The position numbers were made by a program, and so were the translations under genes. The notes beneath the pieces are model-generated. The model made no database searches and had not been told where the DNA came from. It saw nothing but the letters and a program-made list of their open reading frames with translations. From a bacterium (lineage in GTDB: Bacteria > Myxococcota > UBA727 > JAUIJE01), in the NCBI GenBank assembly GCA_030431455.1, contig JAUIJE010000003.1, forward strand, positions 8,360 through 72,359: a stretch of 64,000 bases of DNA, given 5' to 3'. How positions within the stretch are numbered: the first letter of the stretch is position 1; each line of letters begins with the position of its first letter. Below are positions 8,045 to 48,039 of this stretch, piece by piece.

Positions 8045-8697
8045 GGGCAACGACATTGGTGAGTGTGGGGTTGATGCTCTCGATGGCCTGTGGCCCGGGC
8101 CCCGCGGGTGCCGATGGCGGGGACACCCCCGACGGGGGCGGCGTCGAGGCCGACGCGGGGGCGACACCGGACGCGGGGGAAGCGGCCGACGCGGGCGCCG
8201 ACGCCGGTCCGGGCCTGGACGCCGGCGACGGGCCCGACGGCGGGACCGGTCTCGACGCGGGCGTCGGGGGCGATGCCGGGGTGGACCTGTGCCACGAGGG
8301 ACTCACCGGGGTGACCGGCCTCGTTCACCATGTGCACCATTTTGTGGGGGAGGACGGCATCGATGTGTGGCTCACGCGCGACTACGTCGGCCAAGGCGCG
8401 GGGTCCTCGAGCATCTATGAAGCGACCCGGCTCAGCGTCGTACAAGGCGATCTGGACGTGTGCATCACCGACCCCGACGCGCTCACCTACGATTCGACGC
8501 ACCACAACTTTGACGACAGCGTGACCGGGGTGGTCGATGACCAGGTGACGTTTTACCTGCACGTGGGCATGGACCTCGAGCCCCCCTACCCCTTCGTGAC
8601 CACCCTCGAACGCCGGGCGACGTCGGACGGAACGGTGCTCGCGGGGCCGTTCGTCGTCGAGCAGGCCGAGGACGACGAGAGCTCGTGGCCTTTTTAG
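8038..8697 (+). CDS. lipoprotein, hypothetical
   Basis: Signal peptide with LSMAC lipobox and a D/G/A-rich spacer. It overlaps the previous lipoprotein gene by 7 nt. Its first codons ATG GTG AGG GCA ACG ACA TTG carry the GACATTG motif. Confidence 0.5.
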   Translation: MVRATTLVSVGLMLSMACGPGPAGADGGDTPDGGGVEADAGATPDAGEAADAGADAGPGLDAGDGPDGGTGLDAGVGGDAGVDLCHEGLTGVTGLVHHVHHFVGEDGIDVWLTRDYVGQGAGSSSIYEATRLSVVQGDLDVCITDPDALTYDSTHHNFDDSVTGVVDDQVTFYLHVGMDLEPPYPFVTTLERRATSDGTVLAGPFVVEQAEDDESSWPF

Positions 8698-30665: not shown

Positions 30666-30778
30666 GGGGGGAGGTTTTCGCCTCCGGCGGCGTAAATCAA
30701 GTTCCCCCGGGGCCGGGCCGGCCAAAACCCCTTTAGATCTCGGGCGGTTTCGGGCAGGGTCGCGCGCCTGGAGGCTTT

Positions 30779-31769: not shown

Positions 31770-34310
31770 ATGACGATCCGCCGTACGCCCACGTCCACGT
31801 ACAAGCCGAAGACCCAACGCAAGAGCATCAAACCGAGCCCCACGCGCACGACCTCGAACACGACGTCGAGTTCGTCGAGCTCGTCGACGCGCACCCCGGC
31901 CAGCACCGCCACCCAGCAGGCGAGCCGCACCCGGGCCGCGAACGCCGATGCCACCGCCCGCGCGCGGGTGGGCGCGTCGAACCCGTCCGGCACCGGTCGC
32001 GCCGGCGCGAGCGCCGCGCCCCCGCCCGAGAGCGCCCAAAAACGCGTCGAGCGCACCCGGGCCGACGCCCAAGAGGCGATCACCGCCGCCAACGACGTGC
32101 GCGCCCGGTACGACGACGCGCGCCGCGACCTGCTCCAAGCCTCGCTGCCGCGCTTTCTCGGGGGCAGCTCCCCGGCCGAGCGCGGGGACCTCGACAAGCT
32201 GCGGCGCCGCACGTCCCTGTTGCGCGACGCGAGCTTAAACGCGGACAAGAACGCGTACGAAAAAACCCAAACCGCGCTCGACGCCCAGCGCGAAGCCGGC
32301 GTCGCCCCCGCGCGCGCCCGGGTGTTCGGCGGCCAAGCGCCGGTGCCCACCCACCTCGAGAACCTCACCCCCGGCGAGCGTCAACAGGTCGCGGGCCAGG
32401 ACGTGCCGAGCCGCATCGCCAACATCCCCGACCGCATCTACGCGCAATCGGAAGAAGGCCAGCGCGAGGCCCAGGTCAACGCCGCGGTCGACGACATCAA
32501 CCGCGCGGTGGACGGCATCGACAGCGACGCCGACAAAGGCACGCGCAACGGCCAGACCATCAACGCCACCGAGACCCTCGAGCGCACCTTGCGCGAGGCC
32601 CCGCCCGAGCTGCGCGGGGAGATCCTCGAGCAGAGCCGGGACGCCATCGAGCGGCTGACCCCCAACCTCAAGGACCTGAACAAAGACGAGACCACCCGCG
32701 CGGTGGAAAATCTCACCACCGCCACCGAACACGCCGGCGCCCAGAACGCGCATCTGCTCACCGACCCCATCGCCGAGCAGGTGCAGGCGGGTTCGCTCGA
32801 GGAGCGCGGGTCGTTCTTGGGGCGGCACGATCACCGCAGCGAGCAGGAGTTTTCCGACTCGGTGCACGAGGTAATGCAGGACTCGGGGTCGGACCTGTTC
32901 GCCCGGTCGTTGGCCAACCAGCTGCACGAACGAGGCGACACCGGCTTTGCCAATGCCATTGCCACACACGGCGGGGTCCCGGGCAAAAACCTGCTCGAGC
33001 GCGGGAGCGAACTGTTCAGCAACGCGGTGGACAACGTCACCGGCTTCGTCGGCGACATCGCCAACGCGGGGGGCGATTTTATCCGCAACAAGATCGCGGA
33101 CATCGCCCAGATCGACCAGCGCGTGGCCGAGCTGAACTCCGAAGGGGATTCGTTCACATTGGGTCTCGGGGGCGAAGCCGCCGCCGGGGTCTCGGTGGGC
33201 GCGTCCGCCGAGATGGAGGTGCAAAGGACCGACGACGGCTACACCGTGACGGTGACCGGCGAGGCCTCGGCGGGCATCTTTGGCCAACTCGGGGCCAAGG
33301 CGGGGATCGGAGGCGGGGCCCTCGAGGGCCAGGCCAACGTCACCGGACAGGTCCAGGTCGAGGCCCACTTCGATTCCCTCGAGGAGGCCCAGCGGGCGGC
33401 CAGCACCATCGCGGGCATTGGCATTGGCACGGCGGTGGGCGGACCCGCGGGGGCGGTGGCCACCGGCGCCACCGCCACCGACGAGCTGCGGGCGTTCGGC
33501 GAGAACGTCACCGCCACCCGGATCGGGGTCGAGCTGTCCGGCTCGGTGGCGGCCGAGCTCGGGACCGAGGTCGGCCACGCCGGCCTCGGGGGCAGCGCCG
33601 AGATCGAAGCGTCGACGTCGGCCACGGTGGAGATTCGCCCCGGCGAAGCCCCGGCGTTGATCGTGGGCAGCGAGCTGTCCGGCGAGGCCAGCCTCAACGT
33701 GGGCATGGGCGATCTGGAGATGCCGGGGGGCGGTTCGCTCAACCTCGGCAGCGTGGGGGCCAAGGGCGGCGTCAGCGTCGAGACCCGCATCCCCCTCGAA
33801 GGCTTCTCGGTGCAGGACGCGCTCACCGATCCGGTGGGCACCCTGCGCGCGATCCCCGGCCGGATCGCAGACAGCGAAACCACGCTCAAGGCTGAAGTGA
33901 CATTGGAAGGCGAAATCAACCCCAGCATGAACCTCCCGGGGGACAACCAGGTCGGGTTCAACGGGGGCGGGGGCGCGCTCACCGCGGAGATCGCCGCCAC
34001 CATGCCCACCTCGGAGCTCGGCACCGCCGCGCGCCGGGCCCTGTCCGGCGATCTCGGGGGGGCGATTCGCGGCTTGTCCGACGAGGCCCAGCTCGACATT
34101 CAGATCGCCGCCCTCGACCGGCGCGGCTTCGAGATCGACGCGGACATCTCTGCGGGCATCTTCAAAGTCGGCGTCGAGGCCGCGTACATGACCGACGACA
34201 AGACCGACATCTTCACCTTCGAGGGCACGCCGCGCGAGCTCGGCCGCGAGGCCGCGGACTTCTTCGACACCCTCACCGACCCGCTGACCGAGAGCGTGAC
34301 CGGGGGTTGA
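31770..34310 (+). CDS. large hypothetical protein, paralog A of a tandem pair (no recognisable domain; C-terminal Gly/Ala-rich amphipathic beta-like segments)
   Basis: GGGAGG RBS. 846 aa with an S/T-rich N-terminus and no signal peptide. It shares long colinear similarity with the next gene (e.g. HRSEQE..DLFARSL..GGVPGKN..ELNSEGD.FTLGL..AHFD..A.TIAGIGI..AEVTLEG). Confidence 0.6.
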   Translation: MTIRRTPTSTYKPKTQRKSIKPSPTRTTSNTTSSSSSSSTRTPASTATQQASRTRAANADATARARVGASNPSGTGRAGASAAPPPESAQKRVERTRADAQEAITAANDVRARYDDARRDLLQASLPRFLGGSSPAERGDLDKLRRRTSLLRDASLNADKNAYEKTQTALDAQREAGVAPARARVFGGQAPVPTHLENLTPGERQQVAGQDVPSRIANIPDRIYAQSEEGQREAQVNAAVDDINRAVDGIDSDADKGTRNGQTINATETLERTLREAPPELRGEILEQSRDAIERLTPNLKDLNKDETTRAVENLTTATEHAGAQNAHLLTDPIAEQVQAGSLEERGSFLGRHDHRSEQEFSDSVHEVMQDSGSDLFARSLANQLHERGDTGFANAIATHGGVPGKNLLERGSELFSNAVDNVTGFVGDIANAGGDFIRNKIADIAQIDQRVAELNSEGDSFTLGLGGEAAAGVSVGASAEMEVQRTDDGYTVTVTGEASAGIFGQLGAKAGIGGGALEGQANVTGQVQVEAHFDSLEEAQRAASTIAGIGIGTAVGGPAGAVATGATATDELRAFGENVTATRIGVELSGSVAAELGTEVGHAGLGGSAEIEASTSATVEIRPGEAPALIVGSELSGEASLNVGMGDLEMPGGGSLNLGSVGAKGGVSVETRIPLEGFSVQDALTDPVGTLRAIPGRIADSETTLKAEVTLEGEINPSMNLPGDNQVGFNGGGGALTAEIAATMPTSELGTAARRALSGDLGGAIRGLSDEAQLDIQIAALDRRGFEIDADISAGIFKVGVEAAYMTDDKTDIFTFEGTPRELGREAADFFDTLTDPLTESVTGG

Positions 34311-34399: not shown

Positions 34400-36835
34400 A
34401 TGGTTGTCCGGCGCTCCCCGCCCCCGTCTGTCCAGGTTCCGCGCTCCCGCGCCGCCGATTCGGCTGTCCCCGCCGCGTCGGCGCAGGAGACGACGGCCGC
34501 GTCCCCCGCCGCGTCCCCAGACGGCATCGACCGCGGGCCCGGCCAAAGCGCCCGGCCCGGCCAAAGCCCCGATGTCGCCGGGTTGCGCGCCGCCGCCCGG
34601 GCCGCGCTGGCCGCGGCCCAGGAGGCCCGCCACGCCGCAGACCAGGCCCAGGACGCGCTGTTGCGCGCCGAGCTGCCGGTGGTCAGCCACGAACTCGGCG
34701 CGCTGTTGCCCCCGCCGTTGCCCGGCCACGACGCAGAGACATTGTCACGGCTCCAGGCGCAGGCCACCCGCCTCGAAGACAAGAGCGCGGCCGCCGACCG
34801 CGCCGCCCACGACGCGCTCAACGCGGTGCTGCACGCCACCCACGGCGCCGGCCAAGCCCCGCATCACGTGCGGCTGGGGGGCCACCTCGCGCCGCTGCCC
34901 GCGCGGCTGTCGCAGCTTCTCGACGAGGAGCGCGCGGCGTTGGCCGGCCAGCCGGTGCCCGACCGCATCGCCCGCGTGGCCCAGCCCGACGACGGCGCCG
35001 CCCGCCGCGCCACAATGCTCAAGGGTCACCTGCGCACCCTGCGCGACGCGGTGGACGGCATCGACGGGCGCAAAAAGGCGCGGAACCGGGCGACCTTGGC
35101 CGCGGTCGCCACCGTCGCGCGCACCGTGGCGGACGCCCCCGCCGAGCTGCGCCCCATGTTGCTGCACCAGGCGCGCCCGGTGTTGATGCGCCTGAGCCTC
35201 GCGCTCCAGGACCTGGGCCCCGACGACACCCGCGCCGCCGTCGAACAGCTCAGCGCCGCGGCCGAGACCCTGGGACCGGCTCAGGTGTTTTTGCTCACCA
35301 GCCCGCTGGCCAGCGAAATCGCCGCCGGCAGCCTCGAGGAGGACAACACCTTCCTCAACCGGCGGCGACACCGGAGCGAACAAGAGCTCTGCGACGCCGT
35401 GCACGCGGTCATGAACGACACCGGCCACGACCTGTTCGCGCGGTCGTTGTGCCAACAGCTCGTGGTCCTCGACGATCTGGGCTTCGCCCAGGCGGTGGCG
35501 GTGGGCGGCGCGGTCCCGGGCAAGAACACCTGGGAACGCGGCAGCGAGCAGCTCGACGACGCGCTCCGGGATGTCAGCGCCTTCGTCGGCGACCTCGCCA
35601 ACTCGGGCGGCGACTACCTGCGCGAGCGCATCGCCGACTTGAGCGGCATCGACCACAAGATCGCCGAGCTGAACAGCAAGGGCGACAAGTTCACCCTCGG
35701 GCTCGAGGTCGAGGTCGCCACCGGGGCGGCGGTGTACGCCGCGGCCGAGCTCGAGGTCAAACGCAAAAAACACGGCCACTACGAGGTCACCATCTCGGGG
35801 GCGGCGGGGGCGGGCATCTTTGGCGCCCTCGGGGCCAAGGCCGGCCTGTTCGGCGGGGCCCTCGATGGGGAGGCCTACGCTTCTGGGTTCGTCGAAGTGG
35901 AGGCCCATTTTGACACCCGGGAAGAAGCTCTGGCCGCCGCCCGCGCCATCGCCGGCATTGGCATTGCGAGCGGGCTGACCGGCCCGGTGGGCGCCCTGGT
36001 GGTGGGGGCCACGGCCAAGGACGAACTGCGGCCTTTCCTCGACGGGCTGCACGCCACCCGGCTCGGCATTGAGCTCGAAGGAAAAGCCGAGCTCGACCTC
36101 GGCTTTGCCATCGGCCACGGTGGGCTCGCGGCGGAAAATGAGATCAAGGCCACCGCGTCGGCCACGGTAGAGCTGCGGCCGGGCCGCGCCCCCGCGCTGG
36201 TGGTGGCCAGCGAGCTCGAAGGCGAAAGCGTGCTCCGGCTGGGCCACGAAAAACTCAAGCTCCCCGGCGGGGGGGAACTCGAGCTGGGCAGCGTCGGGGC
36301 CAAGGGCACGGTGAGCCTCGAGACCAGCGTGTCGCTCGAGGGCATGAGCCTGCGCGACGTGCTGCGCGACCCGGTCAAGACGGTGCGGGGTCTGAAGAGC
36401 CGGCTCGCCGAGGCCGAGACCACCCTCGCCGCTGAAGTGACATTGGAAGGCCTGTACAACGCCGAGGGCGACCTGCCCCTGCACAGCGACATGAAGCTCA
36501 CCGCGGGGGGCGCCGCGGTCACCGCCGAGCTGGCCGCGACGTTGCCCCACAAAGACCTGGGCGAGTCCGCGCGGCGGGCGTTCGGGGGCGACCTCAAGGG
36601 GGCGCTGTCCGCGCTGTCCGACGAAGCGGTGCTCGAGGTCGAGACCCACGCGCTGGACAAGCGGGGGTTCGACATCGAGGCCGGCATCGAGGTGGGCATC
36701 TTCGCCATCGGGGTCGCGGCCGAGTATCTCACCGAGGACAAGACCAAGATGTTCGCCTACGAGGGCAGCCCGCGCGAGCTGCTCGACGAGGCGGCGGACT
36801 TTTTCCACCGCGTCACCGGCTCGATCACCGCCTAG
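34400..36835 (+). CDS. large hypothetical protein, paralog B of the tandem pair
   Basis: 811 aa, colinear with paralog A. It shares identical nucleotide blocks with paralog A (GCTGAAGTGACATTGGAAGG; GGCATTGGCATTG). Confidence 0.6.
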   Translation: MVVRRSPPPSVQVPRSRAADSAVPAASAQETTAASPAASPDGIDRGPGQSARPGQSPDVAGLRAAARAALAAAQEARHAADQAQDALLRAELPVVSHELGALLPPPLPGHDAETLSRLQAQATRLEDKSAAADRAAHDALNAVLHATHGAGQAPHHVRLGGHLAPLPARLSQLLDEERAALAGQPVPDRIARVAQPDDGAARRATMLKGHLRTLRDAVDGIDGRKKARNRATLAAVATVARTVADAPAELRPMLLHQARPVLMRLSLALQDLGPDDTRAAVEQLSAAAETLGPAQVFLLTSPLASEIAAGSLEEDNTFLNRRRHRSEQELCDAVHAVMNDTGHDLFARSLCQQLVVLDDLGFAQAVAVGGAVPGKNTWERGSEQLDDALRDVSAFVGDLANSGGDYLRERIADLSGIDHKIAELNSKGDKFTLGLEVEVATGAAVYAAAELEVKRKKHGHYEVTISGAAGAGIFGALGAKAGLFGGALDGEAYASGFVEVEAHFDTREEALAAARAIAGIGIASGLTGPVGALVVGATAKDELRPFLDGLHATRLGIELEGKAELDLGFAIGHGGLAAENEIKATASATVELRPGRAPALVVASELEGESVLRLGHEKLKLPGGGELELGSVGAKGTVSLETSVSLEGMSLRDVLRDPVKTVRGLKSRLAEAETTLAAEVTLEGLYNAEGDLPLHSDMKLTAGGAAVTAELAATLPHKDLGESARRAFGGDLKGALSALSDEAVLEVETHALDKRGFDIEAGIEVGIFAIGVAAEYLTEDKTKMFAYEGSPRELLDEAADFFHRVTGSITA

Positions 36836-38816
36836 CCGCCCGCTGTTCGAGCCCGAGGGCCACCGCCAAGCTCGCCGCGCAGAACACGTCGAGCCCAGCC
36901 TCGGACGGCGCCGCCCCCACCACCGCGGAGACCGCCCCCACCCGGGCCGCAATCGTGGACAGCCCGACCTCTGCCAATGTCTGCGCAGACCGTTCGAGGG
37001 CTTTTTGGCGCCGGGCGGATCGGCGCCCCACCCCCGCTTGCGCCAGCTCTTCGAGCCCGGCGCGCGCCTGCCGCAGCGCTTCTTGCACCGGGTCGGCGGA
37101 GGTCTCGAAGCTGGGCACGACCTCGAGGTCGTCCGGCCGCGCCACCGGCTGATGCAGATCGAGGGCGATGACCCGGTCGGTGACCAACAACATGGGGCGA
37201 AGCTCGGCCCCCCGCGGCGACAAGGTCAGCACCCCGGACAGGTACCGCACCGCGTTCGCTTTCACCGCGGCCAAAAAGACATCCACCGCGCCCGGGGTCA
37301 GGGCCCGGTGCTCGATGACCGCCTCCACCGCGACCCCGTCGTGTCCCACCACCTGGGCCCGGGCTTGCTGCGCGCCCGGCGCGTACACCGGCTCGGACAC
37401 CTCGGCCGGGCACAACGCGACGACGTTCTCGGCCAGCACCCGCGGCCGCAAAAACCGCGTGGGGCGGCGGCGCCAATGTGACAGGACCGGCGCGAAGTCC
37501 CGGTGCAGAACCTTGTCGGACCAGGACGCCCAGTCTCCCGACTGCGGCATCACCGACACTTTGCTCAACATCGCCTGGCCGAGGACGAGCGCGCGGTTGG
37601 GCCGGCGCTTGACCGCCTCGGTGAGCAGGTGCCCCTCGGCCAGGGCCCGGAGCTTGACCCCCCGGGCCATCAACCGCCCCCCCAGGGCAGGCCCGGTCGC
37701 CTCCCCCTGCGCGGGCCCGGGAAAACTCTTGGCCAGCACCAGCACGTTGCCCTGGTCGGGCTCGAGCAGCACCACCTCGGCGCGCACCTTGTCATCGTCC
37801 CGCCAGAGGCGGCAGCCCAATGAAACAGCACGCAAGCGCTTCAGCCGGGTCTCGGTCTTGACCTCGGTGCCGAGCACTTCGCTCTGGGGCAGGGGCGCGT
37901 CCTCGGTGTTCGCGGTGCGGCGCCTGGCCTCCAGTTCGCTCACCAGGTGCAGCAGCCGGGCCCCGGAAAAGCGCGCCGACCGGGTCTGGTAGGCCTCCAG
38001 TTGGTCCACGAGGTCGTCGGCACAAGACGCGGGCCAGGTGAAGCCCGCGTCGACGAGCGCCCCCCGTGCCGACCGCAGGCGGGCCACCATCGCGGGGTCG
38101 CAGCCCGACGCCCCCCCGAACAGCAAGCTGACCAGGCCGTCGCGGGCGGGGGCAAACGCTCCGTCGACGTCGAGCCGACGGGCGGGCTGGAGGTATACGG
38201 TGTGGGGGCGCGCGGCGCGACCGGATGCCCGCACCGCCCACACCGCCAAGGCGTGGTGCACACACGCCCCGCTGACGTCGCAATCGCATTGTGCGAACGC
38301 CAGGTCGCCCCCCAGCACAAACCGCACTGTGGAGGTGGGCAGCTCTACGGTGAGAATGCCCCCGGGCCCATCCAGGACCTCGGCCCGGAACCCCGCCCGC
38401 CGGACCTTCTCCGCTTGGCGGTACAGGCGGGCGTGCAGGTGGGCCTTCAGCGCGTCGTCGTCGATATCCGCCACCGGGGCGGCGGCCGGGGCGGACGCAG
38501 CGCCGGTTCCGGCCGCGTCGGGGCCGGAGGGGGCCGCCCGGGCGCGGTAGGCCATGACCAGCAGCAACGCGTGGCGGCACACCCCGGTGGACGCGCAGCT
38601 GCATTGGGCGTCGGATAGGGCGGTGCCGGGGGGCAGCCGGGTCTCGACCGCGTCGTCCTCGCTGACCACGGTGCCGTCGGCCTCGATGCGCAATGTCTCC
38701 GGACGGCCGGCCTCGCACAGCCGCCGGGCGCGCTTGACCAACCCCCGGTTGCTGAGCGCCACCAAGCGGTCGTCGTCGAGCACGAGGAGGTCGTCGCGCG
38801 CGCTCACCGGAGACAA
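36825..38816 (-). CDS. SWIM zinc-finger domain protein (YehQ-like component of MoxR-vWA system)
   Basis: SWIM CxC..CxH signatures (CSCASTGVCRHALLL and CDCDVSGACVHHAL). It is the last gene of the AAA-DUF5682-vWA-SWIM operon. Confidence 0.7.
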   Translation of the reverse strand: MSPVSARDDLLVLDDDRLVALSNRGLVKRARRLCEAGRPETLRIEADGTVVSEDDAVETRLPPGTALSDAQCSCASTGVCRHALLLVMAYRARAAPSGPDAAGTGAASAPAAAPVADIDDDALKAHLHARLYRQAEKVRRAGFRAEVLDGPGGILTVELPTSTVRFVLGGDLAFAQCDCDVSGACVHHALAVWAVRASGRAARPHTVYLQPARRLDVDGAFAPARDGLVSLLFGGASGCDPAMVARLRSARGALVDAGFTWPASCADDLVDQLEAYQTRSARFSGARLLHLVSELEARRRTANTEDAPLPQSEVLGTEVKTETRLKRLRAVSLGCRLWRDDDKVRAEVVLLEPDQGNVLVLAKSFPGPAQGEATGPALGGRLMARGVKLRALAEGHLLTEAVKRRPNRALVLGQAMLSKVSVMPQSGDWASWSDKVLHRDFAPVLSHWRRRPTRFLRPRVLAENVVALCPAEVSEPVYAPGAQQARAQVVGHDGVAVEAVIEHRALTPGAVDVFLAAVKANAVRYLSGVLTLSPRGAELRPMLLVTDRVIALDLHQPVARPDDLEVVPSFETSADPVQEALRQARAGLEELAQAGVGRRSARRQKALERSAQTLAEVGLSTIAARVGAVSAVVGAAPSEAGLDVFCAASLAVALGLEQRAARR

Positions 38817-39925
38817 TCCGCCACGAACTGGGCCAAATGCGCGGGGGTCATCGCGCCCACGAACGCGCCGAGGTCGGCCAGGGTCTGGCCCAACTGCCGG
38901 TCGTAGTCAGGGGCGGCGTTGTCGTCGAGGGCGGCGAGCACGAGCACCTTGGTGCCCTGGCTGCAGAGGTCCCGGACCTGCTGGATCAACCAGCGCGCGT
39001 CCCCCCCTTCGTAGAGGTCGGTGAGCAGCACCATGATCGCGCGGCGGGGCGACGCCACCAGGGAGGCCCCGTAGGAGACGGCGCGGGCGATGTCGGTGCC
39101 CCCGCCGAGCTGCACCTTCATCAGGGTCTCCACCGGGTCGGTGACGTGGTGGGTGAGGTCGACCACCTCGGTGTCGAACACGCAAAGGTGGGTGCGGATC
39201 TGGGGCAAGCCGTGCAAGCACGCGGCGGTCACCGACGCGTGGATGGTCGAGGGCAACATCGAACCGCTTTGATCGACGAGGATGATGATTTGCCATTTCT
39301 CGGAATGTCGACGTGCGCGGGACGAGAACACCGCGCGCTCGAGCACCAGCCTTCGGCGCGCGGGGTCGTAGTGCTTGAGGTTGGTGCGCAAGGTGGTGCG
39401 CAGATCGAAGTTGGCCGCGATCTTGTGGGCGCTGCGGCGGCGGCGGTCGAGGGTCCCGGTGAACGCGGTGCGCACCTCGACGGCCAGGCGCTCCATCAGC
39501 TCGCGCACCACCTGCTGGATGATCTTGCGGGCCATGGCGAGCACCTTCTCGTTCATCAGGTGCTTGGTGCGCAAAACCGCCTGAAGCAGTGACTCGGACG
39601 GCACCGCTTGTTCGAGAATGGCGGGGTCGGTGACGACCTCGTCGATGTGGTACCGCTCGACCGCGTCGGTCTGGAGGCGCTCGATGGTGTCCTGCGGGAA
39701 CAGCTCGTGGATCGCGTGGATCCACTCCGGCACCGTCAACGTCGACGGGCCCGGGCCGCCCTCGCGGGTGTGCAGGTCGCGCTCGGCCATCGAGGGGTCG
39801 CGGTCGTACAGCCAGGACAACGCCGCGTCCATGGCCGAGACCTCGCCTTCGCCCCGCCCGAGCACGGCCTCGCTGGCTTGGCCCAACACCAGGCGCCAGC
39901 GGTCGATGGGGTCGAGGTCGCTCAT
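38804..39925 (-). CDS. vWA-domain protein (YehP-like)
   Basis: vWA/MIDAS region IILVDQSGSM..T. The start is chosen at the ATG overlapping the upstream stop (ATGA); an alternative start lies 21 nt upstream. Confidence 0.7.
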   Translation of the reverse strand: MSDLDPIDRWRLVLGQASEAVLGRGEGEVSAMDAALSWLYDRDPSMAERDLHTREGGPGPSTLTVPEWIHAIHELFPQDTIERLQTDAVERYHIDEVVTDPAILEQAVPSESLLQAVLRTKHLMNEKVLAMARKIIQQVVRELMERLAVEVRTAFTGTLDRRRRSAHKIAANFDLRTTLRTNLKHYDPARRRLVLERAVFSSRARRHSEKWQIIILVDQSGSMLPSTIHASVTAACLHGLPQIRTHLCVFDTEVVDLTHHVTDPVETLMKVQLGGGTDIARAVSYGASLVASPRRAIMVLLTDLYEGGDARWLIQQVRDLCSQGTKVLVLAALDDNAAPDYDRQLGQTLADLGAFVGAMTPAHLAQFVADCLR

Positions 39926-42228
39926 GGGGTGCTCTCCTCGGGCCACCAGCCGTAGTCGATGCCCTGGACCGCCACCGCGCGGTCGAGGGCCCGGGCCTCG
40001 ACCAGCTCGTCCGCCGACGCCGCCGGGCGCAAGAGGTCACGCGCGTCGGGTGGCGCCTCGGCCCCGAGCAACGCGGCCACCACCGCGGCCAGCGCCTCCC
40101 GCTCCCGGGGCGGAAAGTACGCGAAGGAATGCCGCAGCGCGGGCAACGTGGCCAAGAACTCCGCTTGCGACAGCTGGCACAACACCTCGTGCACCGCCCC
40201 GACCAGCGACGGGTCCACGCCGATCTCGACCCGGGCGAGACAAAACAGACCGGCGAGAAAGTCCCCCAGCTGCGACGGGGGCGCGGCCTGGAGCATGGCC
40301 CGGCGATCCCCGGGCAGCCGGCTCGGCGCGTCCTCGTCGTCGTCGACAAGGCTGATGTGCGCGCCCCACGCCGCCCCCCGCAGCCCGCACGGGCAGTCCG
40401 CGTCCAAGGCGCGGCGGCGGAAGGTGGCGCGCACCGCGGCGCCGGTGGCGTCGGCGACCCCGCCATGCCGGACCACGTCGCGCAGCCCCAGCGCCAAATC
40501 CAAATGTGACTGGGTGAGCCCAGCGGTCGCGCCGGACAACATGTCGGCGTGCCACAGGGCGCGGTCGGTCAACGCCTCGAGCAGGGCCGCGACCTGGGGG
40601 TCCCCTTGCCCCCCGAAGCGCGCATCGTGGCGGTGCACGGCCAACAGCCTCGACAGCGCCGGGCCCACCTCGTCGAGCTTGGCGTGTTGCATACGTTGCG
40701 CGAGCACGGCCAAGGCCCGCGCGTCGATGTCGGCGAGCCCGGCGAACCGGGACATCAACAGCACCTCCACCAAGGCGTCGAGCGGGGCGTCGGCTTCGAG
40801 CATCTCGGACAGCCGGCGCCGGGCTGCGTCCTCGATGGTGGCCCCGTAGGCCCCCGCCTCGATGGCGCTGGCCTCGGTCTCGAGCGTCCACCGCACGTTC
40901 CAATGCTCTTGGAGCTCGACGTCGTGAACGGTGGCCGGCCCCGCGGCGCGCACGACGCCGTGGATATCGAGCAGGCGGAGGCGGTGAAGCACCGCGCTCT
41001 GTTGGCGGTGCGCGGCTTGGTGCAGGTCGAGCGACACCGGCACGGTGTCGGCCGAGAACGCGACCCCCCACGATCGCAGGGCGGCGTGTACGTCGTGCAA
41101 CAGCGGGGGCCGGGGGGTGTCGGGGTGCAAGCGGCCGCGGTCGTCGCCCGACAGCACCCGCAGGATCTCCACCAACAACGGGTCGGTGTGGGCGGCGATG
41201 GGCGCGCGCCGGGTCCAGGGCAGCGGCATGTCGAGGGCGCCCTTGACCAACGACGCGGCCAGGCCGTCGAGGAGGTCGACGCGCTGAACCGCCTCGTGAC
41301 CACGCAGCCGGGCCAGGCCTCCGGCGAGGGTGCGGGCGGCGATCAGGTCCGCGGTGGAACACGTCTGGTTCTTGTCGCGGAGGCGGACCACGATGCGGGC
41401 CAAGGCCTCATCGACGGCGCGTTCGGGGCCGTGGTCCCACACCATTTGGTAGTAGCCGGGGGAGGGCATGCCCGACTGGTACCCGGTGAAGCTGTCCAGG
41501 CGGTGAAAGGTGTAGGGCACCAAATAGGTGCCAAGCTCCGCGTCCTCCTCGGGGACGATGTCGGCCGGCGGCGTGTCCGACGGGGTCGCGTCCTCCAGCG
41601 CGGGTTGGTGAAAACCACCGCACACCACCACCACGGTGTCGTGCCGGGCGAGGGCGTGGGCCACGTGCGCCCGCATGTAGGCCTCACGGCGCTCGTCCCG
41701 CGCCTCCGCGGGGTTGGCCTCGCGCAACAGCCGAAAGTAGATTTGGTGGCGTTCGGCCCGCACCTCGTCGTCCAAGGCTTGCTCGAACACGTGGTCCCAC
41801 ACCGCGTCGTACCCGTCGGCGGAGAAGGCCTCGCACAGGCGCTCGGCCCAGGGCATGGGGGCCCGCGGGGCATGGTCGTAGACACGGTCCCGGTAGCGGT
41901 TCTCGACGTCGGCGAAGGCTTCGTGCCAGGCCGGCAGATCGATGAACGCGAGCTCGGCCCCGGTCTGCTGCCCCGCGCGCAAGGCGCGCCACTCCGGGGA
42001 ATAGCCACAAAAAGGGGTCCAGGAGCCGTGCGTGTGAGGCCCCTGCCGATGATGCGAATAAAGCGCCACCGGGGGCTGGTGGTCGAGCAGCAACTCCGGC
42101 AGCCGGGGGGTAAAGTCCGCGGGTCCCTCGACGAGCACCGCGCCCGGGCGCAGCCGGTCGATGGTGCGCTCGACCCAGCCCGCGCAGGCGGGGCTGTGGT
42201 GACGGACACCGAGCACCACCAATGTCAT
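39922..42228 (-). CDS. DUF5682 family protein (YehM-like)
   Basis: 768-aa protein positioned between the MoxR-like ATPase and the vWA gene, as in E. coli yehLMPQ. It starts MTLVVLGVRHHSPACA. Confidence 0.6.
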   Translation of the reverse strand: MTLVVLGVRHHSPACAGWVERTIDRLRPGAVLVEGPADFTPRLPELLLDHQPPVALYSHHRQGPHTHGSWTPFCGYSPEWRALRAGQQTGAELAFIDLPAWHEAFADVENRYRDRVYDHAPRAPMPWAERLCEAFSADGYDAVWDHVFEQALDDEVRAERHQIYFRLLREANPAEARDERREAYMRAHVAHALARHDTVVVVCGGFHQPALEDATPSDTPPADIVPEEDAELGTYLVPYTFHRLDSFTGYQSGMPSPGYYQMVWDHGPERAVDEALARIVVRLRDKNQTCSTADLIAARTLAGGLARLRGHEAVQRVDLLDGLAASLVKGALDMPLPWTRRAPIAAHTDPLLVEILRVLSGDDRGRLHPDTPRPPLLHDVHAALRSWGVAFSADTVPVSLDLHQAAHRQQSAVLHRLRLLDIHGVVRAAGPATVHDVELQEHWNVRWTLETEASAIEAGAYGATIEDAARRRLSEMLEADAPLDALVEVLLMSRFAGLADIDARALAVLAQRMQHAKLDEVGPALSRLLAVHRHDARFGGQGDPQVAALLEALTDRALWHADMLSGATAGLTQSHLDLALGLRDVVRHGGVADATGAAVRATFRRRALDADCPCGLRGAAWGAHISLVDDDEDAPSRLPGDRRAMLQAAPPSQLGDFLAGLFCLARVEIGVDPSLVGAVHEVLCQLSQAEFLATLPALRHSFAYFPPREREALAAVVAALLGAEAPPDARDLLRPAASADELVEARALDRAVAVQGIDYGWWPEESTP

Positions 42229-42232
42229 GGCA

Positions 42233-43336
42233 TCACGTCCCGAGACGGTGGCGGGCCTCGTACAGCGCGGTCCAGTGGGCGCCCTTCTTCTTGGGCACCC
42301 GGCGCTCGAGGTAGGCGCGCAGTCGTTTGAGGTCTTCGGCGTCGTCCTTGGCCGCGACCCCGGCCAAACATTCGACCAGGTCGGCGGCGGAGACTTTTCC
42401 CTCGGTGAGGTAGTGGCTGCGCACCCCCAACAGGTGCGCCACGCTCACCGCTTCGGCGGTGGACAGCACCGAAGACAACCGCTCGGTGGCGTGGCCCTGG
42501 GTGGTGACCCCGGTGCGCAGGTCGCGGAAGGTGGTGACCAAAATCTCGAGAATCTCGTCGGGGGGCCGCGTGTGTACGCCCGAACGTTCGAGCAGGCGGG
42601 TGGCTTCGCGCTTGACCAGGTTGAGCTCGACCTGGAAATCGTTGATGGGAAAAATCGTCTCAAAGTTGAGCCGGCGCTTCAGCGCCGCGCTCATCTCGTG
42701 CACCCCGCGGTCGCGGGTGTTGGCGGTGGCGATGAGGTTGAAGCCCTCTTTGGCAAACAACATCTGCTCGAGCTCGGCCACCGCGAGCTGGCGGTCGGAC
42801 AGCACCGACAAGAGCGCGTCCTGCACCTCCAGCGGGCAGCGGGTGATTTCTTCGAAGCGCACGATCGCGCCTTCTTTCATCGCGGTGTACAGCGGCGCGG
42901 GCACGAGGGCTTTTTCCGTCGGGCCTTCGGCCACGAGCAGCGCGTAGTTCCACGAGTATTTGATGTGGTCCTCGATGAGCGAAGCCCCCCCTTGGATGGT
43001 CAACGTCGACCGCCCTGAGATGGCCGCGGCCAGAAGCTCAGACAGGAGCGACTTGGCGGTCCCGGGCTCCCCGACAAGCATCAGGCCCCGATTTGTGGCA
43101 AGCGTGACCATGGCCCGCTCGACCAGCGACGGGGCCCCGACGAACTTCTTGCTGATGTCGCGGTCGCCATCGCCGAGGATAAACGCCCGCACCGCGGGGA
43201 GCGAGAGCCGCCAACCGGGCGGCTTGGCCGCGGTGTCGTCTTGGGCCAGCCGCGCGAGCTCGTCGGCATACAGCACTTCGGCGGGGGGCCGCTGCAGGTC
43301 CGGCGACGGGGACGGGCGCGATTTGGACTTGGGCAT
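42233..43336 (-). CDS. MoxR-like AAA+ ATPase (YehL-like)
   Basis: Walker A GEPGTAKS, Walker B/sensor regions and the MoxR-type lid. The real start is at MPKSKSR.. (ATG at 43336). Confidence 0.8.
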   Translation of the reverse strand: MPKSKSRPSPSPDLQRPPAEVLYADELARLAQDDTAAKPPGWRLSLPAVRAFILGDGDRDISKKFVGAPSLVERAMVTLATNRGLMLVGEPGTAKSLLSELLAAAISGRSTLTIQGGASLIEDHIKYSWNYALLVAEGPTEKALVPAPLYTAMKEGAIVRFEEITRCPLEVQDALLSVLSDRQLAVAELEQMLFAKEGFNLIATANTRDRGVHEMSAALKRRLNFETIFPINDFQVELNLVKREATRLLERSGVHTRPPDEILEILVTTFRDLRTGVTTQGHATERLSSVLSTAEAVSVAHLLGVRSHYLTEGKVSAADLVECLAGVAAKDDAEDLKRLRAYLERRVPKKKGAHWTALYEARHRLGT

Positions 43337-43416
43337 GGGGCCTCCACCAACCGGTGTGACGGTACCCCAAACGGTCCGGTTTTGCCGTGCTAAAGATCGC
43401 GCCACCGGAGGTGACG
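43337..43416. promoter_or_regulatory. Divergent intergenic region between the MoxR-vWA-SWIM operon and the WGR-DUF4132 gene
   Basis: 80-bp spacer between two divergently oriented starts. GGAGGTGA Shine-Dalgarno before the ATG at 43417. Confidence 0.3.
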
Positions 43417-46400
43417 ATGACCGTGCAGCGCTTCGAACTCTCGGACGGCAAGAGCCACAAGTTCTGGTCGGTGAACGTACAAGGCGCGGACGTGCACATA
43501 CATTGGGGACGCATCGGAACCCAAGGGCAAAGCAAGGTCAAGTCGCTCCCCTCCGCCGCGGCCGCGTCCCAAGAAGCACAAAAGCTCATCGCGTCCAAAA
43601 CCAAGAAGGGCTATGCGCCAGTGACGCCCCACGACGACGACGCCCCCGCCCCCGTCCCCGCCGTCCCCCGGTCCACTCCCGCTTCCCCGCCACCCGCGGT
43701 CGCCGCGCCCCCCACCGCGCCGCCACCGGAGCGCGCCGCCCCCGCGCCTGCCGCGACCATCGATTGGCCCGACGAAGAGACCTTCGTCGTGCCCGACGCG
43801 TGGTCCCGCAAGGCCAACCCACCCAAGGCGCGCACCTCGACGCCGGCCAAGGTGGCCAAGACCTGGGCCGCCCTACAAGCCCGTTGGGCCTCCACCGAAC
43901 TCCGCTTCGTCAAGCCGATGCTGCTCGCGTCGCTCCCGGCCCTCGATCAGATCCTCCAAGCCCCCGCCGCCCCGGCGAAGGCCGACGCCCACGTCGACGC
44001 GCACCTCGGCGCGGTGGGCCTTGTCATCACCGTGCACCAACCCGCGCTGGGCACCGACGTGGTCGACTTCTGGCTCCGCCACGGCCCCGCGCATGCGGTG
44101 GACGCGCTGTTCGCGTGCATGCCCTTGGTGAGCAGCTCCATCGCCACCAAAGACCGCTATCCACATTTGATCACGCCCCTGGCGGATCACCTCGCCAGCC
44201 TGGACGACGCCGCACAGAAATCCTTGGCCGCTTCCCTGGAGGCCCACAGCCAAAAGAGCGTCGACGCCCTGGTCGCGGCCACCCTGCTCACCCCGCGTCC
44301 CCAACCTTGGTCGGATGCTCTGCTGCAGTCCCCCCAGCACAAGACCTGGCGCGAACAACACCGCGACATGACCCTCGACCTCCTCGCGCGTTCGGCCTGT
44401 CGCCCCGCCGATGTCGCCGCGCTGCTCGACGTCCGCCATCTTTGGAACGTCGACTGGCGCCCCGTGTTTGCCCGCGGCGGACGCGAGACCCTGGAGGCGG
44501 TCCTCGAAAACCCGCCGCTCAACCGGACGGTGTCCATCGAGCTGCTCGCCGCCGTGCCCAGCGATGCCACCGCGCGCACCTTGTTCGCGCGCGCCCAAGA
44601 GGGCGACCGCCACGCCATCGGCGCGTTCGATGACCTCATGGGACGTTTTCCAAAGCGCGCCCTCCGCACCTGTCTGCCCGCGGTGCGCGCCGGGGACGAC
44701 TTTGCCGAACGCACCGCCCGCCGCCTGGTGCTGACCTGGCCCGGGCTCGAAGACCAACTCGGGCTCGACGACGAGGACCGCGCCCGGATCGCGGCCTTGC
44801 TCCCCGACGATGTTCCCGACGCCGCGCCCGAAGACGTGCCCGACATCCTGCGCCACCCCCCGTGGATGTCCCGCCCCCCCGAACCCAAAGCGGTGAAGCT
44901 CGACCTCACCGCCCCCGACCTCGCCCCCGCGCTGACCTGGACCGACGACGAGCGGTCCGCGATCGTGGCCGCGGGGCGCGCCGCGGGCGCCGAGCACACC
45001 TACGGCCCGCTGTACAAGCTCGCGTGGGGGGACGACACCCTCAAAAAGGGCAATCCCCCCATCGACATGTGGGGGGGCGGCGCCGCCGCTCACCTCCCCC
45101 GGGCCATCGAACGACACGGACTCGACGTGTTGCACGCGGTGCTCGCCTATTCCTACGTCGGCCCCTTCCTCGGTGCCGTGCTCAAGTGGTGCACATACAT
45201 TGCAGACCCGGTGCTGGTTCCCCTCGCGGCACGCAAGTTGCGCACCAAGCGCGACCACAAACCCGCCGCGGCGTGGCTCGAGCAACACCCCACGTTCGCG
45301 GCCCGGCTGCTCATTCCCGTGGCCCTGGGCAAAAAGACAAGAAAGCAAGAACGCGACGACGCCATGGCCGCGTTGCTGCACATCATGGACAATTCCGGAG
45401 ATGACGAAGTGTTGGCCGTGGCGCGAGATTATGCGCCAGAAGCCGCCGCCTACCTCGAGGCCCGGGGCGCGATCGCCCCCGTCCACCGCCTGCCCAAAAA
45501 GCTCCCCGCGCCCCCCGACTATCTCGTGCTCGGGGCGCTGCCCCGTCCGGTGTTGCACGCCGGGGGCGCGCTTCCCGAGGACGCGGCGTCGAACTTTCTG
45601 ATCATGCTCGCCCTGTCCACCCTCGACGAACCCTATCCCGGTCTCACCGAGGTGGTGGCGGCCTGCACCCCCGCGTCGCAGGCGCGCTTTTCCTGGGCGG
45701 TGTTCGAGGAATGGGAAGCGCAGGGCATGCCCAGCCAGGACAGCTGGTTGTTCGAACAGCTCGGTCACCTCGCCGACGACGGGGTGGTCCGTCGATTGAG
45801 CAAAAAGATTCGGGAATGGCCGGGGGAAGGCGGACACGCGCGGTCGGTGAAGGGGCTCGACGTGCTCGCCGCCATCGGCACCGACGTGGCCCTGATGAAC
45901 ATCTACGCCATGAGCCTGAAGTTGAAGTTCAAGGGGCTGAAAAAGACCGCGGGGGAAAAGGTCGCGGAGATCGGCGAAGCCCGGGGGCTCACCGCCGACG
46001 AGATGGCGGACCGGTTGGTGCCGCGCTTCGACCTCGACGACGAAGGCCGCATGCCACTGGACTACGGCCCGCGGTCGTTCACGGTGGGTTTTGATGAACA
46101 GCTCAAACCATTCGTCCTCGACCAATCGGGCAAACGGCTCAAGAACCTCCCCAAGCCGGGGCAAAAGGACGACCCCGATCGGGCGGTGCCCGCGGAAGCG
46201 AAGTTCAAGCAGCTCAAAAAAGATGTCCGGGACGTGGCCGGCCAGCAGCTTTATCGGTTCGAGCAGATCATGGTCCGGCAGCGCCGCTGGTCGCGGGCCG
46301 ACTTCCAAACGTTTGTGGTCGACCACCCGCTGCTCGTGCACCTCGCCCGCCGCTTGGTGTTCGGCCAGTTCGACGCGGCGGGAGAAATTGTGAACAGCTT

Positions 46401-46941
46401 CCGGGTGGCCGAGGACCGGACCTTCGCCAACGTGGACGACGACGAACTCGACCTCTCAGACGATCACGCCGTGGGCCTGCCCCACCCCTTGGACTTCCCC
46501 GCGGGGGCGGACGCGACCTGGGCCGCGGTGTTCAGCGACTACGGCCTGATTCAACCCTTCACCCAGCTCGGCCGCGAGACGTTTGTGCTCGACGACAAGC
46601 GGGCCAAAGAACGCGCCTACGCGGGCCTGGAGGCGACGCTGGTGCCCACCGGCAAGGTCCTCGGGCTTGAAAAGCGTGGCTGGCAACGGGGCGAGCCCCA
46701 GGACGGCGGCTGCATCTGGTGGATGAAAAGAGCGCTCGGCGACGGCCGCACCGCCTACCTCGCCCTCGACCCCGGCATCGTGGTGGGCCTGCCCGGCGAG
46801 TTCCCTGAGCAGACATTGGGCAAAGTCACCATCGAGGCCGCGCGGTGGGGCCCGTCCCCCGAGGGCGAACCCTTCTCAACCCTCACCCCCGTCGAGTACA
46901 GCGAGCTGATGCTCGACCTGTCCACCCTCACCGCGGGCTGA
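43417..46941 (+). CDS. WGR-domain plus DUF4132 protein (YehI/MolR-like)
   Basis: N-terminal WGR domain (RFELSDGKSHKFWSVNVQGADVHIHWGRIGTQGQ), a proline-rich linker, then a ~1000-aa region typical of WGR-DUF4132 proteins. Confidence 0.7.
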   Translation: MTVQRFELSDGKSHKFWSVNVQGADVHIHWGRIGTQGQSKVKSLPSAAAASQEAQKLIASKTKKGYAPVTPHDDDAPAPVPAVPRSTPASPPPAVAAPPTAPPPERAAPAPAATIDWPDEETFVVPDAWSRKANPPKARTSTPAKVAKTWAALQARWASTELRFVKPMLLASLPALDQILQAPAAPAKADAHVDAHLGAVGLVITVHQPALGTDVVDFWLRHGPAHAVDALFACMPLVSSSIATKDRYPHLITPLADHLASLDDAAQKSLAASLEAHSQKSVDALVAATLLTPRPQPWSDALLQSPQHKTWREQHRDMTLDLLARSACRPADVAALLDVRHLWNVDWRPVFARGGRETLEAVLENPPLNRTVSIELLAAVPSDATARTLFARAQEGDRHAIGAFDDLMGRFPKRALRTCLPAVRAGDDFAERTARRLVLTWPGLEDQLGLDDEDRARIAALLPDDVPDAAPEDVPDILRHPPWMSRPPEPKAVKLDLTAPDLAPALTWTDDERSAIVAAGRAAGAEHTYGPLYKLAWGDDTLKKGNPPIDMWGGGAAAHLPRAIERHGLDVLHAVLAYSYVGPFLGAVLKWCTYIADPVLVPLAARKLRTKRDHKPAAAWLEQHPTFAARLLIPVALGKKTRKQERDDAMAALLHIMDNSGDDEVLAVARDYAPEAAAYLEARGAIAPVHRLPKKLPAPPDYLVLGALPRPVLHAGGALPEDAASNFLIMLALSTLDEPYPGLTEVVAACTPASQARFSWAVFEEWEAQGMPSQDSWLFEQLGHLADDGVVRRLSKKIREWPGEGGHARSVKGLDVLAAIGTDVALMNIYAMSLKLKFKGLKKTAGEKVAEIGEARGLTADEMADRLVPRFDLDDEGRMPLDYGPRSFTVGFDEQLKPFVLDQSGKRLKNLPKPGQKDDPDRAVPAEAKFKQLKKDVRDVAGQQLYRFEQIMVRQRRWSRADFQTFVVDHPLLVHLARRLVFGQFDAAGEIVNSFRVAEDRTFANVDDDELDLSDDHAVGLPHPLDFPAGADATWAAVFSDYGLIQPFTQLGRETFVLDDKRAKERAYAGLEATLVPTGKVLGLEKRGWQRGEPQDGGCIWWMKRALGDGRTAYLALDPGIVVGLPGEFPEQTLGKVTIEAARWGPSPEGEPFSTLTPVEYSELMLDLSTLTAG

Positions 46942-46956
46942 CCGACGGCGGGCGGC

Positions 46957-48039
46957 TCAGCCGAACGCTTGTTTGTAGTTGACCCCTTCGGCCTCTTCGG
47001 TCGGGTCGAACGCGTCGTCGGTCATGGACTCAAAAAACCGGGCCAAGGCGTCGCCCACCTCGGCGGGGGTCTCGAGCAACACCGCGCGTTTGCGGAACTG
47101 GCTGCCCCCGCGCAGGCCGCGCGAATACCAAATCAAGTGCTGCCGAAAGGTGCGCACCGCCTGTTCCTCGGCGGAGTAGCGCATGCGTTTTTGCAGGTCG
47201 GGGTCGCGCTCCTCATCGAGCTGCTGGTGGAACGCCACGTGGGCGGCAAAGTGTCGCACAATGGTATTGTATCGATGCTCGGGACCCGGCGCGGGCAGAG
47301 ACCGCCCCGCCTTGCAGCTCTCGAACACCCACGGGTTGCCCAATGCCCCCCGGCCGATCATCACCGCGTCGCAGCCGGTCTCGGACAGCCGGGCCATGGC
47401 CTCCTCGTAGCTGGTGATGTCCCCGTTGCCGATGATGGGCATGTCCACCGCCTCGACCATGCGCGCGATGTGGTCCCAGTTGGCTTTGCCCTTGTACATC
47501 TGGGCCCGGGTCCGGCCGTGCACCGCCAACGCCGCGCAGCCCGCGTCCTCGAGGTGTTTGGCCATGTCGAGGCAGGTGATGCTGTGCTCGTCCCAGCCGG
47601 TGCGGATCTTGGCGGTGATGGGCACTTGGTCGTCGACCGCTTCGCGCATGGCCTTGACCAGGTCCGCGGCCCGGGCCGGCTCGGTCAAAAGCGCGCAGCC
47701 CGAGCCGGTCTTGGTGACCTTTTTCACCGGACAGCCCATGTTGATGTCGATGATGTCCGCCCCGATGCGCACCGCCTCTTGGGCCGCCGCGCACATGGGC
47801 TCGATCTCGCCGCCGAAAAGCTGCACCGAGTAGGGCCGCTCTTTTTCTTTGTCGTAGGTGAGGTACTGCTGCGTGCGGCGATTCTTGTAAAAGATGCCTT
47901 TGGCCGAAATGAGCTCCGTCGTGCACAACCCCGCGCCCATCTCCTGGGCCAACACCCGAAACGGCATCTCGCTCACCCCCGCCATGGGGGCGAGCAACAC
48001 CGAGGGCTCGATGGTGAAAGGGCCGATGCGCAGGCTCAT
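46957..48039 (-). CDS. dusB: tRNA-dihydrouridine synthase (DusB-like)
   Basis: Dus motifs LAPMAGVSE, IDINMGCP, catalytic Cys, KIRTGWD. The start is at MSLRIGPF. Confidence 0.85.
   Translation of the reverse strand: MSLRIGPFTIEPSVLLAPMAGVSEMPFRVLAQEMGAGLCTTELISAKGIFYKNRRTQQYLTYDKEKERPYSVQLFGGEIEPMCAAAQEAVRIGADIIDINMGCPVKKVTKTGSGCALLTEPARAADLVKAMREAVDDQVPITAKIRTGWDEHSITCLDMAKHLEDAGCAALAVHGRTRAQMYKGKANWDHIARMVEAVDMPIIGNGDITSYEEAMARLSETGCDAVMIGRGALGNPWVFESCKAGRSLPAPGPEHRYNTIVRHFAAHVAFHQQLDEERDPDLQKRMRYSAEEQAVRTFRQHLIWYSRGLRGGSQFRKRAVLLETPAEVGDALARFFESMTDDAFDPTEEAEGVNYKQAFG

Follow-up and report, generated by a model that had tools for sequence, protein, structure and literature searches.

The 64,000-nucleotide stretch of DNA analysed here (the window; positions 8,360 to 72,359 of contig JAUIJE010000003.1, GenBank assembly GCA_030431455.1), from a bacterium of the Myxococcota lineage UBA727, contains a complete new copy of an operon type that is catalogued in databases and has no known function. 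Four minus-strand genes encode a MoxR AAA+ ATPase, a DUF5682 protein, a von Willebrand factor A (VWA) protein and a SWIM zinc-finger protein, and a divergent gene encodes a WGR-DUF4132 protein; by sequence comparison, all five proteins are orthologues of Escherichia coli YehL, YehM, YehP, YehQ and YehI/MolR. Three unrelated DNA-damage regulators, LexA, PafBC and DdrO, converge on genes of this system. Our tentative reading is that the proteins constitute a midasin-like AAA+/MIDAS remodeller, which would be induced by DNA damage, may have proteolytic activity and would be targeted to single-stranded DNA (ssDNA) or DNA breaks. New in the present analysis are the folds of the YehM-like and YehQ-like proteins, the gene fusions, the gene-order variants and the convergence of PafBC, LexA and DdrO.

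The five genes and their proteins

The five genes are backed by open reading frames (ORFs) and a high third-position GC content, and an independent gene call on a metagenomic contig identical to the window gives the same five genes. The minus strand carries, in order of transcription, the genes of the YehL-like ATPase (42233–43336, 367 amino acids), the YehM-like DUF5682 protein (39922–42228, 768 amino acids), the YehP-like CoxE-type VWA protein (38804–39925, 373 amino acids) and the YehQ-like SWIM protein (36825–38807, 660 amino acids). The ATPase and DUF5682 genes are separated by a 4-nt gap (42229–42232), the start codon of the VWA gene and the stop codon of the DUF5682 gene overlap in the sequence ATGA (39925–39922), and the SWIM gene starts with GTG in a GTGA overlap with the VWA stop codon (38807–38804). 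To judge from these junctions, the four genes are translationally coupled in the window. A divergent intergenic spacer of 80 bp (43337–43416), presumably a bidirectional promoter, separates them from the plus-strand gene of the MolR/YehI-like WGR-DUF4132 protein (43417–46941, 1174 amino acids). The order of the four genes, their overlaps, the gap and the spacer had been described in a first-pass annotation of this DNA and can be read directly in the sequence; the length of 1175 residues given there for the WGR-DUF4132 protein includes the stop codon. The spacer contains an inverted repeat, AACCGG-N21-CCGGTT, as well as the palindromes ACCGGT and GGTACC, and shows no match to the sigma-70 consensus.

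Searches with Pfam recover the complete domain set that had been proposed, i.e., AAA_5 (E 6e-35), DUF5682 (E 2e-113), VWA_CoxE (E 6e-54), WGR (E 4e-18), DUF4132 (E 1e-49) and, just above its threshold, SWIM (19.8 bits vs a cutoff of 19.6). The marginal SWIM assignment is backed by a C-x-C-x5-C-x-H motif, by a second copy of this motif and by 29% identity to YehQ (E 3e-49). NCBIfam provides a specific family match for none of the system proteins of the window. In BLASTP comparisons with E. coli K-12, the ATPase shows 64% identity to YehL over 355 residues, the VWA protein 55% to YehP and the DUF5682 protein 36% to YehM. The WGR-DUF4132 protein corresponds to YehI in its C-terminal half (31%) and to YehF in its N-terminus (38%); YehF is the WGR fragment of the molR pseudogene in K-12, for which RefSeq now uses the names yehF and yehH. 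The likeness to the E. coli yehI-yehLMPQ gene set that had been noticed from the sequence is thus one of orthology in all five families. The E. coli locus, yehF/yehH-yehI-yehK-yehLMPQ, resembles that of the window in its five families, its core order and its overlapping stop and start codons. It differs in the presence of the small gene yehK and of two co-directional DUF4132 copies, the WGR-bearing one being a pseudogene in K-12, whereas the window has a single, intact and divergent copy. The description of these genes as lacking an assigned function also stands, since the full-text literature yielded incidental mentions only and no functional study of DUF5682, DUF4132 or yehLMPQ.

The ATPase, which we take to belong to the YehL subfamily of MoxR ATPases, contains a Walker A motif, GEPGTAKS (43049–43072, minus strand), and its translation also shows a Walker B motif (FEE), a sensor-1 motif (ATAN) and, for the arginine element, the sequence KRR. 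By these motifs, which are intact, it is predicted to be catalytically competent. The solved ATPases nearest to it by sequence are the AAA domains of midasin (E 3e-14). The VWA protein is of the CoxE type, with an N-terminal helical domain, and its MIDAS site is intact, including the DQSGS motif (D-Q-S-G-S, 39260–39274, minus strand) and the downstream elements GGGTD and TDLYEG.

The DUF5682 protein is predicted to consist of an N-terminal alpha/beta domain with a parallel beta-sheet core, resembling the TIKI/TraB/EreA hydrolase fold (residues ∼1–250; 41479–42228, minus strand), and a C-terminal half that forms a karyopherin/HEAT-like alpha-solenoid. Other fold matches of the protein are to alpha-solenoids, e.g., exportins, FANCI and condensin HEAT subunits. 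Four motifs of the N-terminal domain are invariant or nearly so: GVRH (residues 7–10), LVEGP (32–36), RREAYM (180–185) and GGFH (204–207). The same holds for the residues H10/H11, E34, R181/E182 and H207, the counterpart of the second TIKI glutamate being unassigned. The order and spacing of the resulting pattern, GxxH...E...RxxxM...GxxH, are those of GSIH, IVEAD, RNLAW and GALH in YbaP, a TraB-family protein of E. coli. The TIKI superfamily comprises several peptidases and esterases, with an active site of two histidines and two glutamates plus a conserved arginine (PMC6254334). Membership of the Pfam TraB family was considered and rejected on negative Pfam and hhalign results; the protein is filed here as a TIKI fold, on the basis of the modelled fold and the motif pattern only.

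In the WGR-DUF4132 protein, the WGR domain (43432–43623, plus strand) has kept the W30-G31-R32 motif, and the solved structure closest to it is the WGR domain of 2ra8. Such domains are best known for their part in the sensing of DNA breaks by PARPs. The DUF4132 domain (46129–46683, plus strand) has many aspartate, glutamate, histidine and arginine residues that are invariant across 33 homologues, and no solved structure is detectably related to it by sequence. The region in between shows a weak HEAT-like similarity in profile searches.

A model of the YehQ-like protein (AlphaFold2, pLDDT 92.5) predicts two SWIM zinc fingers, a helical bundle, tandem OB folds and a C-terminal helical bundle; no solved structure related to the protein by sequence was found. 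The first C-x-C-x5-C-x-H motif (38571–38603, minus strand) comprises C72, C74, C80 and H82 in the numbering of the 663-residue ORF, all four of which are invariant in 42 homologues. The second motif (38256–38288, minus strand; C177, C179, C185 and H187) lies 105 residues further on, and is part of the majority consensus of the family without being invariant. The tandem OB-fold region (model residues ∼320–548; 37164–37850, minus strand) is most similar to ssDNA binders, namely LEF-3, Teb1, RPA, POT1 and SSB, and the anticodon-binding OB folds of LysRS and AsnRS are also among the matches. Conserved arginines in the OB region are no more than suggestive of ssDNA binding. The predicted OB folds lend further support to the nucleic-acid recognition that had been suspected from the WGR and SWIM domains; for a poly-ADP-ribose ligand, at which no test was aimed, there is no indication.

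Gene order across genomes

In a scan of one genome per species, at least 580 genomes contained a relative of DUF5682, and the best 80 loci, drawn from Myxococcota, Acidobacteriota and Actinomycetota, were kept for the analysis of synteny, with the gene order read to the limit of each contig. The order AAA, DUF5682, VWA, SWIM is kept in all 80 loci, as the first-pass annotation had anticipated for other genomes, and the linkage of the core genes is far beyond chance. DUF4132 genes, 126 in total, adjoin the system in 68 of 81 loci. Typically, one to four tandem DUF4132 paralogues are located immediately upstream of the operon and are co-directional with it; many of these, like E. coli YehI, have no WGR domain. 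Clustering of 1026 ORFs from 81 loci, all against all, revealed no conserved neighbour outside the five families; antisense shadow ORFs account for the remaining large clusters. The module is therefore self-contained.

In Pigmentiphaga, in a Methylobacterium-like contig and in Agrobacterium vitis, WGR-DUF4132 genes are found inside the operon, between the DUF5682 and VWA genes. This embedded layout, which occurs in alpha- and beta-proteobacteria, identifies the DUF4132 protein as an integral component, and gene arrangement is strong evidence for a functional link between the DUF4132 gene and the MoxR operon. The divergent layout of the window is not the conserved arrangement, co-directional upstream paralogues being the norm. 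Besides the window, a DUF4132 gene on the strand opposite to the operon is seen in only one of the 80 loci (L008), and co-regulation from a shared bidirectional promoter, if any, is therefore specific to the genome of the window.

The DUF5682 family is large, with 1,656 clusters at 50% identity in an exhaustive HMMER search (E≤1e-10). When six unusually long cluster representatives were tested, five proved to be fusions of DUF5682 with VWA_CoxE, which by the Rosetta-stone argument is evidence, at the level of sequence, for physical cooperation of the two proteins. The fusions (P0304, P0335, P0347, P0356 and P0257) are single polypeptides of ∼1120–1220 residues, any of which may owe its origin to an assembly frameshift across the usual 4-nt overlap.

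A few loci have conspicuous surroundings. Downstream of the operon, the Methylobacterium-like contig has a reverse-transcriptase (RVT_1) gene (L085, 17258–19156) and Pigmentiphaga an AAA_15/AAA_21 ATPase gene (L084, 15846–17933). Genes of both kinds are frequent in defence islands. A plasmid-borne copy of the system is present on plasmid pl1 of Iodobacter fluviatilis (L086, 4330–17578). One of its DUF4132 genes is truncated, IS3 and IS200/IS605 transposases lie on its flanks, the SWIM gene is apparently split into two ORFs, and a type I restriction-modification system is located next to it.

DNA-damage regulators in relatives, and the flanking genes of the window

Sites matching the published PafBC (RecA-NDp) consensus, tGTCgg(N10)tA(N3)T (PMC8635444), were counted in 58 actinobacterial loci (1.22 Mb) against a background of dinucleotide-preserving shuffles. 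The coding strand contains 46 sites and the other strand 9, compared with 0.7 per strand on average, and 4 at most, in the shuffles. Of the coding-strand sites, 44 lie directly upstream of system genes, 41 of them before DUF4132 genes and three before AAA genes; the latter three belong to loci without a DUF4132 gene ahead of the AAA gene. At ∼17 sites the start codon follows 7–9 nt past the −10 element, which is the leaderless geometry of Actinobacteria. At least one upstream site is present in 39 of the 58 loci, with representatives in Thermomonosporaceae, Pseudonocardiaceae, Micromonosporaceae and Streptomycetaceae. According to published work, the RecA-NDp motif is active across Actinobacteria (PMC8223512); no paper was found that ties PafBC to these genes.

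Two further regulators act on relatives of the same genes. Reviews count E. coli molR among the LexA-controlled genes whose SOS box is known (PMC6590174; PMC11039860), and the box, CTGGATAAAATTACAG, is located just 5′ of the yehF ribosome-binding site. In Deinococcus, depletion of DdrO strongly derepresses the WGR protein DR2173 and the DUF4132 protein DRA0166, and the study reporting this also lists E. coli molR as a member of the LexA regulon. Three unrelated damage regulators thus converge on genes of the system. In the window, which has a GC content of about 70%, the spacer shows no recognisable damage-response operator and, unlike the region before E. coli molR, no recognisable LexA box. 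Inspection of the spacer by eye gave no box of the Myxococcus xanthus or Geobacter type, and the upstream regions of other non-actinobacterial loci have no obvious motif in common.

Several other elements were noted near system genes. In Archangium (L009–L012) a conserved sequence, GGTaCTGGCGCGTcCAGtCGCtCTTCAGTACGA, with inverted ends GTACTG...CAGTAC, lies directly 5′ of the AAA gene, ∼45 nt upstream of its start at 8836, while further upstream the species share no related sequence. The element, which may be an operator or part of the 5′-UTR (untranslated region), departs from the LexA consensus of M. xanthus. In Actinomadura/Spirillospora a gene of ∼310 codons is convergent on the SWIM gene (L006:15816–16767, L016:15572–16550 and L078:16211–17244, minus strand). 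Its product has a HEAT-like N-terminus and it has a PafBC-type promoter motif of its own, so that it may encode an extra, lineage-specific partner under damage control. In Lentzea a PafBC-like motif, TGTCGGCATAGCCC(C/G)(G/A)TA(C/G)CCT, occurs 7–9 kb downstream of the system (L032:19476, L042:19594, L071:17725 and L080:14484, minus strand), with no convincing ORF after it.

The flanks of the window encode Dus, SDR and GH113 proteins, an O-antigen-ligase-like protein and proteins of unknown family. The 3′ end of the SWIM gene overlaps by 11 nt with a convergent gene (34400–36835, plus strand), which together with 31770–34310 (plus strand) forms a pair of large genes with high third-position GC beside the system. 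Their products, of 811 and 846 residues, respectively, have no match in Pfam or PADLOC and are not kept as neighbours in the 80 other loci. Further upstream, one protein (26905–28653, minus strand) has the unusual architecture of an N-terminal FHA domain and an HlyD-type membrane-fusion region in a single chain, and the adjacent 691-residue gene product (28650–30725, minus strand) has no family match. On the other side, the longest ORFs of the divergent Dus (46957–48303, minus strand) and GH113 (47894–49147, plus strand) genes overlap by ∼400 nt. The Pfam match of Dus begins only at residue 103, and its true start is probably further downstream.

Proposed mechanism and alternative explanations

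In the mechanism that we propose, the system would be expressed upon DNA damage, and the five proteins would assemble around a hexamer of the YehL-like MoxR ATPase and the MIDAS-bearing, YehP-like VWA adaptor. Recruitment of this complex to ssDNA would depend on the YehQ-like protein, through its tandem OB folds and SWIM fingers, and recruitment to DNA ends or nicks on the WGR domain of the DUF4132 protein, where present. The alpha-solenoids of the DUF5682 and DUF4132 proteins would serve as scaffold and specificity subunits, with a variable number of DUF4132 paralogues providing alternative targets. The MIDAS site of the VWA protein would then grip an acidic residue of a DNA-bound target protein, which would be pulled or remodelled by ATP hydrolysis, and which the TIKI/TraB-type domain of DUF5682, having kept its His-Glu-Arg-His core, may cleave. 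In this scheme the complex, its binding to DNA, its substrate and the proteolytic step are inferred, as is induction by damage in the organism of the window.

The mechanism borrows from midasin/Rea1, in which an AAA_5 motor and a MIDAS/VWA domain likewise grip and extract a client; CbbQO and NorQD follow the same ATPase-plus-MIDAS logic. The single-chain arrangement of midasin is echoed by the DUF5682-VWA fusions. Unlike midasin, the window ATPase is a single-domain protein, presumably a homohexamer, with the MIDAS site on a separate CoxE-type protein; the TIKI-fold, SWIM-OB and WGR-DUF4132 partners have no counterpart in midasin, and a role in ribosome assembly is not indicated. A more specific version, in which the machine strips or proteolyses proteins trapped on damaged DNA, is an unlikely one, drawn by analogy. 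In eukaryotes, Cdc48/p97 and SPRTN/Wss1 act in the repair of DNA-protein crosslinks. What is shared with them is a proposed logic only, i.e., a damage-linked AAA+ motor combined with a DNA-targeted hydrolase or protease and with modules that bind ssDNA or DNA ends. The components are not homologous: p97 is of another AAA+ clade, the protease is a zincin instead of the TIKI domain of the window, and the targeting domains are different.

A number of observations speak against a damage-induced, DNA-directed remodeller. The DUF5682 protein gives no match to Pfam TraB, Erythro_esterase or ChaN even at E≤10, hhalign aligns it to YbaP with a probability of 0.1, a profile search against the Protein Data Bank (PDB) found nothing, and TIKI-fold proteins without catalytic activity, ChaN and PMT, are known (PMC6254334). 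OB folds, WGR and SWIM are able to bind RNA or proteins as well, and there are the many DUF4132 paralogues without WGR. With regard to control, the PafBC sites are not phylogenetically independent, many loci being from the same genera, and the PafBC regulon extends past repair genes. E. coli yehL-yehM is silenced by H-NS and has a promoter separate from the molR SOS box. The spacer of the window contains no known LexA-type box, although the motif of the host lineage may differ, and neither the gamma/beta-type LexA box CTGT-N8-ACAG nor the alpha-type box GTTC-N7-GTTC occurs in the promoter regions of Iodobacter, A. vitis, Pigmentiphaga and the Methylobacterium-like contig. The classical actinobacterial LexA box TCGAAC-N4-GTTCGA, searched with up to 2 mismatches, was rejected, the hits being scattered in coding sequence and regarded as noise. 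Finally, damage induction is also typical of some defence or prophage-related genes.

The locus had been described as a conflict or stress-response machine. The evidence favours the second half of this description, as a response to DNA damage, and an anti-phage role is less likely. If the system were nevertheless directed against phages or mobile elements, which we regard as improbable, its WGR and OB domains would be sensors for ends or replication intermediates of foreign DNA. The MoxR-VWA pair would then provide a threshold switch, with either the TIKI-type peptidase or the DUF4132 protein as effector. CoxD/CoxE-derived MoxR-vWA pairs have been proposed as conflict switches (PMC7159879), and the ternary conflict systems described in the same survey, which are enriched in Actinobacteria and Myxobacteria, resemble the window in combining such a pair with large sensor or scaffold proteins. 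The window system differs from these in having no VMAP, iSTAND, beta-propeller or VWA-fused effector domains; in addition, this eLife survey makes no mention of YehL, SWIM or WGR, the Pfam match to bpMoxR is below threshold, and an obvious toxic effector is lacking. The diversifying DUF4132 paralogues, one to four in tandem per locus, resemble variable sensors, and control by DNA damage or of the WYL type is common among defence systems. None of the five system proteins, however, nor any of five flanking proteins, matches one of 5027 PADLOC models. In favour of a defence role are also the occurrence of the system on 44 plasmids (a number that probably includes mislabelled chromosomes), the mobilizable Iodobacter plasmid, where the copy lies beside the restriction-modification system, IS elements and an integrase, and the H-NS silencing of yehL-yehM in E. 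coli, as in acquired genes. Against this, 98% of complete E. coli genomes (5333 of 5426) carry yehM once, on the chromosome, unlike strain-variable islands, the DUF5682 family is essentially missing from phage genomes, and conserved defence neighbours are absent across the 80 loci, the Iodobacter plasmid being the one exception.

Two explanations do without DNA as the site of action. That the proteins are dedicated to assembling or disassembling a large cellular complex other than DNA, such as the ribosome or a respiratory or envelope complex, with the damage-regulon signals reflecting general stress induction only, appears quite improbable. It is consistent with midasin being the nearest solved ATPase by sequence, with the karyopherin/HEAT-like alpha-solenoids that dominate the C-terminal half of DUF5682 and the middle region of the DUF4132 protein, with RNA as a possible ligand of the LysRS/AsnRS-type OB folds, and with the action of RavA-ViaA and other MoxR systems on respiratory complexes. 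However, the top OB matches bind ssDNA, WGR domains are known above all from break sensing by PARPs, and LexA, PafBC and DdrO all converge on the genes. Very unlikely, in our view, is a chaperone for metal-cofactor insertion or enzyme maturation in the manner of CoxD/CoxE, in which DUF5682 and DUF4132 would be client-specific adaptors. The historical name of MolR, 'molybdate metabolism regulator', would fit such a role, and the molybdate annotation of MolR and DUF4132 recurs in the Deinococcus paper; the same study, however, found molybdenum-metabolism genes unchanged, and RefSeq has dropped the molR name. The VWA protein is, by its Pfam score, a strong CoxE-type member, the TIKI fold includes the heme/metal-binding ChaN, and CoxD-CoxE, NorQD and the Mg-chelatase MoxR-VWA pairs insert metals (PMC7159879). 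The window does share with CoxD-CoxE, NorQ-NorD, CbbQ-CbbO and RavA-ViaA a MoxR gene beside a VWA gene with intact MIDAS. Pairs of the CoxD-CoxE, NorQ-NorD and CbbQ-CbbO type adjoin the genes of their clients (CO dehydrogenase, NO reductase and Rubisco, respectively), whereas no such gene is near the window system, and metalloenzyme, molybdopterin or transporter genes are not conserved beside it in the 80 loci, nor found there in the window. The window system also has three extra dedicated large subunits compared with these chaperone pairs, and cofactor insertion offers no obvious use for damage-regulon control, OB folds and WGR.

Known from catalogues as Pfam DUFs and yeh genes, the gene set is widespread and is core in E. 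coli, and yet has been without an assigned function. If the system is indeed a remodeller induced by DNA damage, it would represent a machine of the bacterial damage response that was not recognised before. It would provide a function for molR, so far an orphan in the canonical SOS set, and explain its place in the SOS response, and the actinobacterial PafBC regulon would gain a large conserved module. Should the system turn out to act in defence instead, it would represent a new type that is based on MoxR-VWA and senses DNA ends. How proteins on damaged DNA are cleared or remodelled is poorly understood in bacteria, and the hypothesis that the YehLMPQ and MolR proteins take part in this process is now directly testable.

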